DNA of 64,000 nt from a virus: positions 165 to 64,164 of IMG/VR virus record IMGVR_UViG_3300038701_001123; one strand, 5' to 3'. Shown here piece after piece: positions 1,975 to 8,302 of this stretch. Under the pieces are notes generated by a model. That model saw nothing but the letters and a program-made list of their open reading frames with translations. It did not search any database and was not told the DNA's origin. Both the position numbers and the translations under genes were made by a program. Within the stretch, counting starts at the first letter, position 1; each line of letters begins with the position of its first letter.

Positions 1975-2198
1975 CAACTCGATAATCCCCTCAGAACATG
2001 CTCTTCTGTCTGTTTCATCGCGTTTCTGAGTTCATCTTCCTTGACATCAGTGTAGAACAGATGACGTTCCACTTTATCCGCGCCATAGGAACCCGTGAGA
2101 ACCAGCGAGCCATCGCCGATCCTCCACTCCAGGATAACGCCATGCTGAATCATGTATTGGAAACAGCGTGATCCTGCGGCTTTCAGGTCCTCGATCAT
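1974..2198 (-). CDS. Hypothetical protein
   Basis: ATGA overlap with upstream gene. Confidence 0.6.
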   Translation of the reverse strand: MIEDLKAAGSRCFQYMIQHGVILEWRIGDGSLVLTGSYGADKVERHLFYTDVKEDELRNAMKQTEEHVLRGLSS

Positions 2199-3160
2199 CC
2201 AAACATCCTGTTAATGATTTCCATCAGGTATGCTGTATCGATTGTGTCGCTGTCCTTCTCTTTGCACTTGTTGATCACTTCCTGGAAGTAGGCGACGTCC
2301 ACCCCGGTCAGTTGTTCTTCCAGGATAATCGGGTTGTTGAGGTCCAGTTCGCTGATCTGCATAGCCATCTTGAGATACTGGCCCGCATTGATCTTCCATC
2401 CACGTTGAATGAATTTCTTCGCTCGGAACACAGAACAAACAGGATACAGAGATCCACGGTACACCAGCGTCTTGGACATGAGAGCAAGAAGGCTTTCATT
2501 ATTCACCACGACACCTTCATCACGTGTCCAGTAGTTCATGCAGTGGACAAAATCGAAGTTCTCGTGGATAGCTTCGTGATCGCCATGAAACCGCAGGATA
2601 AGCTGGACCCCGCCTTTCAGCGTGATCGCATTGCTGGAGAGGAAGACCGGATGGTAGTCTGGCTTCTCCTTCTGGGCTTCTTCGCTGACCTCGCCCTCGG
2701 CCTGCATGTTCTCGAAGGCCTCGTCAATGTATTCACCGGCATCTGGCGTGTCTACACCATTTCGTTCGAAGTATTCGTAATCCTTGGTCTGCTCATCTCC
2801 GGCCACACCCGCTGATTTCACCACGATCCGAACCCGAGGACGATCAAGTGTGTCTTTCAGTTCTTCCACAGACATGGAATAGTTGATCCCACCCTGCTTC
2901 GCGGTGCGGCCCTTCTGGAATTTCTCCAGATAGTAGTTCGCCACTGCGACAGTTGTCTCGTAGCGACGGAAGTACAGGTCATAGTCATTGACGTCTTCGC
3001 CCAGAAGCATAGAGGCGATGGATCCGCCAGTCACGATGACATCGGACTTGCAGGCTTTCCGCAGCTTCTCATCTTCGATGCTTTCCAGCCACTTGTCGAC
3101 TTTCTTCACCAAGATTTGGTTAATTGTCTTGATTTGTTTTCCCACCATCAGAACATCCAC
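2195..3160 (-). CDS. Pol-beta superfamily nucleotidyltransferase-like protein
   Basis: VTGGSIASMLLGEDVNDYDLYF fits the hG[GS]x(9-13)DhDh NTase signature; third acidic motif candidate NFDFVH. Confidence 0.7.
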   Translation of the reverse strand: MDVLMVGKQIKTINQILVKKVDKWLESIEDEKLRKACKSDVIVTGGSIASMLLGEDVNDYDLYFRRYETTVAVANYYLEKFQKGRTAKQGGINYSMSVEELKDTLDRPRVRIVVKSAGVAGDEQTKDYEYFERNGVDTPDAGEYIDEAFENMQAEGEVSEEAQKEKPDYHPVFLSSNAITLKGGVQLILRFHGDHEAIHENFDFVHCMNYWTRDEGVVVNNESLLALMSKTLVYRGSLYPVCSVFRAKKFIQRGWKINAGQYLKMAMQISELDLNNPIILEEQLTGVDVAYFQEVINKCKEKDSDTIDTAYLMEIINRMFG

Positions 3161-6141: not shown

Positions 6142-6873
6142 CTATGTGAGTCGTTTCAGCCCGCCTTGGGCCTGTTGAATTGGACGTTGCAGGTTCACCT
6201 TATCACCTGCGGCCATGCCTTGACCATAGGCACTCATGTTCGCTCTCACACTGCTGCTTCGCGGCTGGCGAAATTGAACATCAGGAAGGATGCTCTTCAA
6301 GCCTTGCAGGACGATCTCCGATTTGACCTCAACGAGATCATTGCCGGTACTGTCATGCTGGACGGTACGGGCTTCCATGAGTGCTTCAAGGCGAGTGTTG
6401 ATACGCTCGGCGAAACCAATCATGAACGACCAGTATTGCGTATGACGCGACACTCCCTCCTTCTTTGGGTTTTCCTTGAGGAACTCCTTCCACCCACGAT
6501 CCATGCTGTCGTGGATCAAGCCCAAGAGGAAGCCGTGCATCGCGACGTCTCCCTTAAAGCCGAAGATCTCAGTAACCTTCTTGTTCCTCACAGTCTGAGA
6601 TCGACCATTCCACGCCAAGGTTCCGCAGTAGCGAGCAATAGTCGTATCGCAGTATTTTTGCGAGGGATGCTCCTGCTTCTGCCTCTGTTCGAAAGTGGCG
6701 CTGGACATGTCGCGCTTGAACTCCACGGCTTTCAGATCTTCCTCTGTGACACCGTGTTTCTCCATCAACTTCTCTGCGATCTGCAGAGCAGCGATGGCTT
6801 CGTCTTCAGTTGCGCCGTTCTCAGGTATCTTCGCCTTGAGTGCAGCAATCTTATCAAGTATTGACTGATCCAT
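6142..6873 (-). CDS. DUF2786 domain protein
   Basis: N-terminal ILDKIAALKAK..ENGATEDEAIAALQIAEKLMEKHG pattern; start after GAAAGGCTACC leader. Confidence 0.7.
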   Translation of the reverse strand: MDQSILDKIAALKAKIPENGATEDEAIAALQIAEKLMEKHGVTEEDLKAVEFKRDMSSATFEQRQKQEHPSQKYCDTTIARYCGTLAWNGRSQTVRNKKVTEIFGFKGDVAMHGFLLGLIHDSMDRGWKEFLKENPKKEGVSRHTQYWSFMIGFAERINTRLEALMEARTVQHDSTGNDLVEVKSEIVLQGLKSILPDVQFRQPRSSSVRANMSAYGQGMAAGDKVNLQRPIQQAQGGLKRLT

Positions 6874-6890: not shown

Positions 6891-6975
6891 TGGTGGAGAC
6901 ACCGGGGCTTGAACCCGGACCGGCCTAATGCTTTTGACAGCGACGGCCTGCTCTGACCGATTAAGCTATGTCCCC
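6891..6975 (-). ncRNA. tRNA-like RNA with Ala identity acceptor (G3:U70, A73, CCA) and non-canonical anticodon arm
   Basis: GGGGACA/TGTCTCC-A-CCA acceptor, D arm GCTT/GAGC, T arm CCGGG-TTCAAGC-CCCGG; anticodon arm is 27 nt rather than 17. Confidence 0.8.
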
Positions 6976-6982
6976 AAATCTT

Positions 6983-7090
6983 TTACTGATCTGAGAACAT
7001 TTGTTCCAGATAGTGCGGCGGCGCAATGGCGAACCCGAGTTTGATCAGGCTATCCGCTGCCCATGCGCGCACGAAGTTAATTAGGAACAT
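6983..7090 (-). CDS. Small hypothetical protein (35 aa)
   Basis: GGAG RBS, MFLINFVRAWAADSLIK... Confidence 0.4.
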   Translation of the reverse strand: MFLINFVRAWAADSLIKLGFAIAPPHYLEQMFSDQ

Positions 7091-7123
7091 GGTGTTCTCC
7101 AAAGGTTGGTTGTTTGAACCCAT

Positions 7124-7163: not shown

Positions 7164-7174
7164 CGTAAACAAGT

Positions 7175-7206
7175 GGGGACGACGCATTTCCCTACGCGCC
7201 GCCCCC
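7175..7206 (-). terminator. 12-bp hairpin ending the structured RNA region
   Basis: GGGGGCGGCGCG-TAGGGAAA-TGCGTCGTCCCC pairs fully only on the minus strand, using three G:U wobbles; followed by ACTTGTTT. Confidence 0.6.
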
Positions 7207-7208
7207 TT

Positions 7209-7281
7209 TTGATGTGACCGGGATCGAACCGGCTACCCTCTGATTAGAAGTCAGATGCTCTACCAAATGAGCTACTCATCT
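7209..7281 (-). tRNA. tRNA-Arg(UCU)-like gene with defective acceptor stem, no encoded CCA
   Basis: Anticodon arm TCTGA-CTTCTAA-TCAGA, D arm GCTC/GAGC, T arm GCCGG-TTCGATC-CCGGT; acceptor AGATGAG/CACATCA has two A:A mismatches. Confidence 0.7.
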
Positions 7282-7324
7282 AGACCAGGATCTTTTCGAG
7301 CATTCGCCGCATTTTACTCTCATA

Positions 7325-7413
7325 ACCAGCGCTCTACCACTGAGCTACCCGCCAGCAGTCCAACGATAAGGGTGTTGGATGGCGGGGCCGGATTTGAACC
7401 GACGACCTCTGTT
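7325..7413 (-). ncRNA. Circularly permuted tRNA-like domain (Y-RNA/YrlA-like topology)
   Basis: On the minus strand the 3' half (AACAG-AGGTC-GTCGG-TTCAAAT-CCGGC-CCCGCCA-T-CCA) precedes a 21-nt linker and the 5' half (TGGCGGG-TA-GCTC-AGTGGTA-GAGC-G-CTGGT); 7/7 acceptor pairs. Confidence 0.85.
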
Positions 7414-7558
7414 TAGGATGTGACGATCTCTAATTGTCTCCTTTCCGTTCTCACACTAAGGGGCACAAGTCTCTATAGTATGAGTGGTTAGCATTCCCCG
7501 GACCAGATCCGGGGCGCTTGTTCAGTCTCAGTCTCAGTCTATCCCCTATGGGATCCGT

Positions 7559-8302
7559 TTAGCCGAGGATATACTCGAAGAGTTCCTTGGCAATCTTCGT
7601 GTTGCCGACCTCAACGCAGTTGGCGCGTTGCCGTGCTTTCTTCACGGCCGAGATCAGCTTGTCCATGCGGCCCAGCATCGCCGACTTTTCATGCGGCGTG
7701 ATCATGCTGGACGTGTGCGTCAGTTCGATGCGAGCGACCGGAACGTCTTCATTCCATTGCTGCACTTGGGCCGGGTGTTCCTTGGTCGGCTCGACCAGGA
7801 TCCGCGACTTGAGAGTTTTCTCGCCCTTCATCGTGACCGTCGGTTGGGCACGATACATTCCTTCGCCGAGGTTGGGATCAGCTTCCCACTTCGTCGACAT
7901 TTCCAGGGTCGGGATTGCGATCAGCACTTCCCGAAGCTGTTTCAGGCGGGTCTCCATGCCCAGAAGGAAGGTGGCCGGGACATCTTTCATGATGGTCACA
8001 CCATCCACGATGAGGTCGGCCTTGGCCCGGCCATTCGCTTCTTCAAGCTGGAACAGGGCATCGTAGTGGCGACCGGTCACGCCGAACAGGTGGTCCAGCT
8101 TGTCGGCGACAGTCGTGACCATTTCTTTGGTCTCGTCGGTGTTCTCGCCAGCGCGGCTTTCGTCAAAGAAACGAACAGTCTTGGTGTGTCCTCGGAAATG
8201 GTCCGGCTTCTTCGCGAAGACCGTCAGGGTTTCCTTACCGATCGCAGCGGCTGCGTTCGTTGTGTCGGCCATCACGGCCAAAAGTTCATGGAGTTTGGGC
8301 AT
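7559..8302 (-). CDS. Uncharacterised conserved protein (resembles the family I recall as DUF7873)
   Basis: MPKLHELLAV, ANGRAKADLIVDG, VPATFLLGMETRL, PTKEHPAQV...EDVPV, KLISAVKKARQRAN motifs. Confidence 0.75.
   Translation of the reverse strand: MPKLHELLAVMADTTNAAAAIGKETLTVFAKKPDHFRGHTKTVRFFDESRAGENTDETKEMVTTVADKLDHLFGVTGRHYDALFQLEEANGRAKADLIVDGVTIMKDVPATFLLGMETRLKQLREVLIAIPTLEMSTKWEADPNLGEGMYRAQPTVTMKGEKTLKSRILVEPTKEHPAQVQQWNEDVPVARIELTHTSSMITPHEKSAMLGRMDKLISAVKKARQRANCVEVGNTKIAKELFEYILG

Follow-up and report, generated by a model that had tools for sequence, protein, structure and literature searches.

A DUF7873 gene and the RNA that follows it

In the present study we analysed a stretch of 64,000 nucleotides (nt) of the viral record IMGVR_UViG_3300038701_001123 (the window), on whose minus strand a gene for a DUF7873 protein of 247 amino acids (aa) is followed directly by a candidate structured RNA of about 390 nt carrying two domains that resemble transfer RNA (tRNA). 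The phage record is 64.6 kb long and 99% complete, and the window represents nearly all of it. A preliminary description, made from the letters alone, had placed at this site a conserved, DUF7873-like protein and, starting directly after its stop codon, a structured RNA, the two forming a mobile unit. The protein was named correctly, its match to Pfam DUF7873 running end to end (E 2e-71), and all of the RNA elements listed there were found on the minus strand. Judged from its sequence, the locus is an instance of a widespread module with two parts, a DUF7873 gene and a composite tRNA-mimic RNA of about 390 nt that lies downstream on the same strand.

The linkage between gene and RNA was followed with a covariance model (R1), built from an alignment of the permuted tRNA-like module of the RNA in eight distant loci and run on every DUF7873 locus fetched. 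The linkage set comprised 88 DUF7873 loci from viral contigs, cultured phages and the window, and the threshold was 35.5 bits. At 80 of the 88 loci an R1 match lay on the strand of the gene, 90-770 nt downstream of the stop codon; two of the other eight had too little flanking sequence, and the rest carried weaker matches in the right place. In the bacterial and archaeal genome collection the module was present at 11 of 13 DUF7873 loci, mostly on short contigs of metagenome-assembled genomes (MAGs) that are possibly viral. Homologous genes devoid of any conserved downstream RNA had been named as the observation that would speak against the preliminary proposal; at both sets of loci the RNA was found at the frequencies just given, and the proposal is not refuted on this count.

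A tblastn search found DUF7873 in 75 cultured phage records, the hosts of these phages being Rhizobium, Vibrio, Klebsiella/Serratia, Ralstonia, Pseudanabaena, Microcoleus, Gordonia, Arthrobacter and Rhodococcus. All ten cultured phages inspected have unannotated or dubiously annotated sequence after the gene, with a gap of about 270-700 nt in eight of them and a gap of less than 100 nt with tiny annotated open reading frames (ORFs) intervening in two, and in several cultured phages the gene and its gap sit in the middle of a tRNA cluster. No other conserved neighbour of the DUF7873 gene was found across the loci inspected. Gene and RNA are seen together across very different phages, as the idea of a travelling unit had it. 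Additionally, a MAG chromosome contig of Aquamicrobium (971 kb; L151:5366-10291) holds a DUF7873 gene with a downstream gap of 569 nt among short unnamed ORFs, on an island between housekeeping genes that suggests a prophage remnant or a mobile island.

Structure of the permuted core

The permuted tRNA domain seen in the preliminary description (7417-7322) is recovered by R1 with a high score (Table 1). Read from 5' to 3', it consists of one strand of a short helix, a variable-loop-like AGGUC, the T arm, the 7-nt 3' strand of the acceptor stem, an insertion, the acceptor 5' strand, UA, the D arm and the other strand of the short helix, which has 4 base pairs (bp) and is anticodon-stem-like. 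The module lacks an anticodon loop, and a long irregular helix takes its place. Among 77 non-identical modules, standard pairs fill 97.3% of the cells, and compensatory change is seen in each of the 20 pairs; covariation scores 0.873, compared with 0.197 after shuffling and at most 0.155 with slid partners, a margin that is large even though the alignment was fitted to R1, which inflates the pairing somewhat.

Pairing extends to the two flanks of the module. A different yet complementary pair of sequences occupies the closing helix in each of the eight aligned closest relatives, and family-wide the pairing energy of matched flanks is -27.5 kcal/mol vs -19.9 kcal/mol for mismatched ones (p 7e-17). 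On account of this matched-flank pairing and of the complementary changes in the relatives, the core is therefore best described as a tRNA-like domain with a long irregular helix that closes it. The outer helix in a global alignment to the Rfam YrlA model pairs part of the same stretches, and an asymmetric internal-loop motif, U-NAG-A, is over-represented immediately 3' of the module (15 occurrences vs 4 expected). As far as sequence can tell, the core follows the Y RNA plan and is of the YrlA type. Actinophage loci and some jumbo-phage loci show two permuted modules in tandem instead.

A GAGTA/TGCTC hairpin had also been proposed in this region. The letters are indeed there; the hairpin is poorly kept in relatives and competes with the covarying closing helix, and it was rejected as mutually exclusive with the better-supported helix 7425-7418/7312-7305.

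Table 1. Coordinates of the DUF7873 gene and of the predicted elements of the downstream RNA in the window
Feature	Position	Strand	Basis or remark
DUF7873 protein gene, 247 aa	7559..8302	-	Pfam PF25283, E 2.1e-71, 240.9 bits (cutoff 27), residues 1-246
Whole candidate non-coding RNA, ~390 nt	7170..7558	-	minimum free energy z score, covariation in close relatives; ends inferred
5' hairpin AUCCC-AUAG-GGGAU, 5 bp	7541..7554	-	kept in 8/8 aligned relatives, 2 compensatory pairs
(AGACUG)x3 repeat	7523..7540	-	conserved in close relatives
Hairpin CCCCGGA-UCUGG-UCCGGGG, variable element	7496..7514	-	predicted fold; sequence differs in relatives
Hairpin with conserved loop (..GAGACUUGUGCCCCU..)	7450..7484	-	RNAalifold helix, columns 121-128 with 148-155
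Closing helix, 5' strand (CGUCACAU)	7418..7425	-	pairs with 7305-7312
Circularly permuted tRNA-like module	7322..7417	-	R1 98.4 bits; Rfam YrlA 36.7-41.2 bits
Module T arm	7403-7387	-	
Module acceptor 3' strand CCCGCCA	7386-7380	-	
Module discriminator U, then CCA, then inserted hairpin	U7379; CCA 7378-7376	-	
Module acceptor 5' strand UGGCGGG	7354-7348	-	
Module D arm	7345-7331	-	
Conserved asymmetric internal-loop motif U-NAG-A, here UAUGAGAGUAAA	7313..7324	-	relatives' alignments
Closing helix, 3' strand (AUGCGGCG)	7305..7312	-	pairs with 7418-7425
tRNA-like cloverleaf, ordinary order, ARAGORN tRNA-Arg(UCU)	7209..7281	-	Rfam tRNA 56.7 bits (cutoff 29)
3' hairpin, 13 bp, terminator-like	7175..7206	-	12 pairs conserved with compensatory changes in relatives

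An encoded CCA end and a second tRNA-like domain

Directly after the 7-bp acceptor 3' strand, 64 of the 77 DUF7873-linked modules encode N-CCA, about one being expected by chance. The connecting loop is A/U-rich with a median of 22 nt, and the base immediately before the acceptor 5' strand (-1) is U in 40 of the 77. Under the same model, modules linked to genes of TROVE (Ro60-like) proteins have short closed loops and N-CCA in at most one of five, and modules linked to DUF2828 genes have N-CCA in two of three.

The YrlA of M. smegmatis is the only one with a 7-bp stem. Both in vitro and in vivo, RNase P cleaves it where the 5' end of a tRNA would lie, and the upstream half carries a terminal CCA, of which CA is added after cleavage (PMC4201824). 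Taken together, the N-CCA of 64/77 modules and this precedent suggest by analogy that the DUF7873-linked RNA may likewise be cut by RNase P into a two-piece RNA, the two pieces of which would be paired. The window RNA resembles that of M. smegmatis in its 7-bp stem and carries an encoded U-CCA; it differs in that the M. smegmatis RNA has Rsr as its binding partner and lies next to the Rsr gene, and in that CCA is encoded in the window whereas CA is added post-cleavage in M. smegmatis.

A second tRNA-like domain, a cloverleaf of ordinary order, starts 40 nt after the module in the window (7281-7209) and has five of seven acceptor pairs with two A.A mismatches. ARAGORN reports such a cloverleaf 40-60 nt after the module in 31 of 77 loci and a second covariance model (R2) in 33 of 77; in the closest relatives of the window, the position keeps the D arm and the anticodon arm only. 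The 'anticodons' of these second domains are scattered (tct, tga, tat, tgt, ttg, att, atg, aac, stop and loops of odd size, A34 forms included). Compared with the other tRNAs of the same loci, the second domains form on average 4.9 of 7 acceptor pairs vs 6.3 and encode CCA in 3/31 cases vs 50/64 (p 1.5e-7). Because of the fixed offset and the degenerate acceptor stems, we regard the cloverleaf as a domain of the RNA and not as a free-standing tRNA gene; the stretch 7209-7281 is most likely part of the same RNA and not a working tRNA-Arg gene. What had been called a defective tRNA-Arg is therefore a cloverleaf with an incomplete acceptor stem, as was seen, and most likely no working tRNA gene. 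Annotation tools place a 'tRNA' here (Arg in the window; Ile, Ser, Thr, Lys or 'stop' at the equivalent fixed position elsewhere); it is probably non-decoding, and phage tRNA inventories may therefore be slightly inflated.

These two domains naturally raise the thought of tRNA production, namely that the RNA is a precursor matured by host RNase P and 3' exonucleases, that its products (a two-piece or re-joined tRNA-like molecule and a tRNA-Arg-like one) act in translation, and that DUF7873 is a maturation or modification enzyme or just a neighbour, but no stable partner of the RNA. A precursor would explain well the discriminator and CCA encoded after a 7-bp stem in so many modules, the frequent position of the module within phage tRNA clusters and the second domain that passes the Rfam tRNA threshold at 56.7 bits, and permuted tRNA genes that mature via RNase P are known in a red alga (10.1101/312249). 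We nevertheless consider this unlikely: the module has a long irregular helix where a tRNA has its anticodon loop, the acceptor identity pairs vary freely, as does the discriminator base, the second domain combines scattered 'anticodons' (A34 forms and stop among them) with odd loops and weak acceptor stems, and the strict link to one protein family would be left unexplained.

Comparison with Ro60-associated Y RNAs

The sole non-tRNA Rfam match of the window RNA at a meaningful E value is YrlA (RF02553), with 36.7 bits in local and 41.2 bits in global alignment, below the gathering cutoff of 69. This cutoff cannot separate the classes, because the Ro60-linked modules in viral contigs score in the range of the window (35-43.5 bits on Rfam YrlA). 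The YrlA RNAs that work with Ro60/Rsr (PMC4201824; 10.1101/312249) share with the window RNA the permuted order T arm-acceptor-D arm, flanks that form a closing helix, D-loop and T-loop sequences of the tRNA type, and an occurrence in phages. They differ from it in several respects: YrlA is encoded upstream of rsr and the window RNA downstream of DUF7873; the YrlA model has about 115 positions and the window RNA about 390 nt, with extra 5', second-tRNA-like and 3' domains; and where a typical YrlA has a closed loop, the window RNA encodes a discriminator and CCA. Furthermore, it falls below the Rfam cutoff, and the middle helix of the YrlA model, the Ro60 motif and a Ro60/TROVE gene were all missing.

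The search for that motif covered 77 DUF7873-linked RNAs. In bacterial Y RNAs, Ro60 binds the motif GNCGAAN0-1G, which is located in the 5' strand of the terminal helix (PMC4201824); the 5' flank of the window RNA lacks it, and 3 of the 77 RNAs have it, which is the chance level. None of eight TROVE/DUF2828-linked phage RNAs carries the motif either. The sequence GGCGAAUG at 7308-7301 was considered as a Ro60 motif and rejected, being on the wrong (3') strand of the helix and of chance frequency.

With respect to the protein, no TROVE or DUF2828 gene was found in the 99%-complete phage record, and no TROVE gene in nine of ten cultured DUF7873 phages. Rhizobium phage RHph_TM39 (MN988559.1, 129765-130511) carries DUF7873 with its RNA and, about 6 kb away, an ORF for a 529-aa TROVE (Ro60-like) protein. 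A pattern scan of viral contigs for the permuted arrangement, blind to proteins, gave 40 stretches that were then scored with R1 and searched for DUF7873. The permuted modules form three groups, namely those beside DUF7873, those beside TROVE/vWA or DUF2828+DUF7788 (Ro60-like) genes, and those in contexts without a nameable gene.

It may be asked whether the RNA is simply an ordinary YrlA Y RNA that works with a Ro60 (Rsr) of the host, DUF7873 being an accessory factor or an unrelated neighbour. Its core architecture would agree, its 41.2 bits lie within the range of the TROVE-adjacent modules, and one DUF7873 phage does have a TROVE gene too. Such a reading is quite improbable in our opinion, given the lack of TROVE and DUF2828 in the window phage and of TROVE in nine of the ten cultured phages, a Ro60 motif that the 5' strand lacks and that is no commoner across the family than chance predicts, the missing middle helix, and a CCA end, a second domain and a 5' domain that are not YrlA features.

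The DUF2828+DUF7788 phage loci have the same permuted module (60-76 bits on R1) beside a single large protein gene; unlike the locus in the window, they lack DUF7873 and have a 470-aa TROVE-like/vWA-type partner, with the RNA upstream of the partner gene. On three viral contigs (L134, L129 and L113), proteins of about 470 aa with DUF2828+DUF7788 are encoded directly downstream of YrlA-like modules, two of the three RNAs having N-CCA, and these proteins appear to be a Ro60-like partner class. One of these contigs (L129, IMGVR_UViG_3300033475_000303) also carries a full two-piece tmRNA (transfer-messenger RNA) of the alpha-proteobacterial type at 6232-6558 (-), with 142.5 bits, about 1.1 kb from the YrlA-like module and the DUF2828+DUF7788 gene.

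Comparison with two-piece tmRNA

Two-piece tmRNA with its protein SmpB is the other known system that comes to mind. It has in common with the window RNA the succession of T arm, acceptor 3' strand, CCA, intervening loop and acceptor 5' strand, as well as a small dedicated protein beside a tRNA-like domain without an anticodon arm, the pairing of protein and RNA being putative in our case. Partial matches to beta-tmRNA in relatives fall on the permuted part of the RNA. The window RNA differs from two-piece tmRNA in having a true D stem, its protein is 247 aa long, and the fold searches returned no SmpB chain. A tmRNA reading was rejected: no tmRNA model matched in the window at E up to 10; the open frame beginning at the hexamer repeats does not persist in relatives, and no tag frame is conserved; and the pair 3-70 is G-C, C-G, U-A or A-U and never G.U in the 77 modules, so that G3.U70 is absent. 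Separately, Pseudanabaena phage PA-SR01 (L013:5263-5442, +) has a sub-threshold match to permuted tmRNA (31.9 bits, cutoff 47) about 2 kb downstream of DUF7873, and R1 is weak there (23 bits).

The periphery of the RNA

Around the core, a 394-nt stretch folds better than all of 100 dinucleotide shuffles (z = -3.25). The preliminary description was right that the RNA follows the gene, and its 3' limit moves from 7281 to about 7170. The claim that no ORF occupies the stretch holds for the coding strand, which has none of at least 40 aa; on the opposite strand a 53-aa ORF runs from 7255 to 7416.

In nhmmer searches with the 5' and 3' elements, matches were obtained in close relatives only, and those of the 5' hairpin (7541-7554) were confined to a close clade. 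The statement that homologues are followed by similar hexamer repeats proved correct for near relatives only; across the family, the 5' domain holds the motif AGANURA about four times as often as expected (31 occurrences vs 8). The conserved hairpin 7484-7450 is an element absent from the earlier list, and its loop motif UGCCCCU is also present in more distant loci. At the other end, the 3' hairpin (7206-7175) is stable on the coding strand only, because of its three G.U pairs, in agreement with the terminator that had been predicted to fold on that strand alone. A promoter scan near the RNA gave weak matches (9 of 12), approximately at chance level.

An RNA that begins right at a stop codon and ends in a terminator-like hairpin might serve its own gene, either as a cis-acting 3' untranslated region (3' UTR) with a role in the stability, termination or processing of the DUF7873 transcript or as one half of a toxin-antitoxin-like, self-regulatory pair in which it would neutralise or regulate DUF7873; a self-contained two-part module with no other conserved neighbour, which also occurs on a small island in a bacterial chromosome, would suit the latter. 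The antitoxin RNAs of type III systems are short tandem repeats located upstream of an endoribonuclease toxin gene. The window RNA is instead a single large tRNA-like fold downstream of the gene, and the protein resembles no known toxin, with no match to the toxin families of Pfam and PHROGs. With regard to a 3' UTR, 390 nt with two tRNA mimics and covariation in all pairs go far beyond what a terminator or stabiliser needs. We therefore give these possibilities little credence.

Finally, that decayed tRNA genes without function came to lie by chance beside a conserved gene in tRNA-rich regions is close to refuted and hardly believable, for although tRNA clusters surround the gene in many phages and adjacent tRNA genes can weakly match the permuted model, the order and offset are fixed in 80/88 loci, every pair shows compensatory changes, the flanking helix is conserved, and the element is present in the window phage, which is essentially without a tRNA cluster.

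The DUF7873 protein

The DUF7873 family comprises 2041 clusters at 50% identity, always with a single domain of about 250 aa and without fusions. An AlphaFold2 model of the window protein is confident (mean predicted local distance difference test score 89.6) and shows long helices and beta-hairpins; the C-terminal helix is conserved and basic. The fold comparison proposed in the preliminary description thus yielded a good model and no named structural relative: Foldseek against the PDB gave no match at E 0.001 or better, the best match in VIA-align was 3kdq, an unnamed protein (Z 8.7 at a root-mean-square deviation of 8.4), and the matches in AlphaFold DB and ESM Atlas were unnamed relatives only. 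Likewise, an ESM Atlas feature search gave no usable match, a sequence profile search of the PDB nothing meaningful, and PHROGs no family matching the protein. Within the literature that could be searched, we found no paper that names DUF7873 or describes the gene-RNA pair. In a survey of jumbo phages, TROVE was the one protein mentioned with a tRNA-like partner. To our knowledge, the tRNA-like Y RNAs of bacteria and phages have so far been described solely as partners of Ro60.

A proposed Ro60-independent particle built on tRNA mimicry

On balance, we favour with some reserve the view that the DUF7873 gene and its RNA constitute an RNA-protein module that is independent of Ro60, built on tRNA mimicry and probably processed by RNase P. 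The protein and the RNA would act together, most likely as a ribonucleoprotein without Ro60. Host RNase P would cleave the RNA just 5' of U7354 (between 7355 and 7354), the 3' side would be trimmed back to the encoded CCA (7378-7376), and the acceptor stem and the closing helix would keep the two resulting pieces together. The particle might then show tRNA-shaped surfaces to host factors that recognise the elbow or the acceptor end of tRNA. As to its downstream role, we can only guess; during infection it might be a decoy, sponge or tether for host factors that recognise tRNA. tRNA repair had also been proposed; neither RtcB nor a CCA-adding enzyme was found in the phage genome, so that the repair idea gains no support from gene content.

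Obviously, several points weigh against a Ro60-independent particle, in addition to the fitting of the covariation alignment mentioned above. Adjacency of a gene and an RNA is by itself no proof of physical binding. The family has a near-neutral median isoelectric point of 6.7, and neither a recognisable RNA-binding fold nor a named structural relative of DUF7873 was found. Ro60 may be supplied by the host, and RHph_TM39 has both DUF7873 and TROVE. Moreover, the CCA of the window RNA is partly paired within the inserted hairpin (CCAAC/GUUGG), which could hinder processing.

A bolder proposal, possible and to our mind doubtful, is a new class of ribonucleoprotein in which DUF7873 replaces Ro60 and an RNase P-split RNA with a CCA end acts on the tRNA machinery of the host, each particle offering one acceptor/T-arm mimic and one anticodon-arm mimic. 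Such a particle could, for example, capture toxins or enzymes directed against the acceptor end or the anticodon loop of tRNA, or could enter the ribosome like tmRNA.

The significance of the locus lies in the association of a core of the Y RNA type with another, very common protein family. If the pair does form a particle, it would represent a second, Ro60-independent use of tRNA mimicry in phages of Proteobacteria, Actinobacteria and Cyanobacteria. The conserved CCA end offers a concrete hypothesis, which is cleavage by RNase P into a two-piece RNA.

Neighbouring genes and other observations

The genes around the locus on the minus strand make up a block for replication and nucleotide metabolism, with a family A DNA polymerase, a primase, an ATP-dependent DNA ligase, a dCTP deaminase-like protein and thymidylate synthase nearby. 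Farther along, a 321-aa protein (2195-3160, -) matches phrog_4400, of unknown function; it has no Pfam match and a weak match to a nucleotidyltransferase PHROG (E 1e-5).

Another tRNA-like gene, for which there was no ARAGORN call and no blastn match in cultured phages, lies at 6894-6975 (-) and has a perfect 7-bp acceptor stem and an encoded CCA. It scores 44.1 bits with the Rfam tRNA model, and the region of its anticodon arm spans 26 nt (4 bp, internal loop, 3 bp and a 6-nt loop GUCAAA). Between it and the 3' hairpin of the RNA there is a 46-aa ORF (6983-7123, -) with a Shine-Dalgarno-like GGAG.

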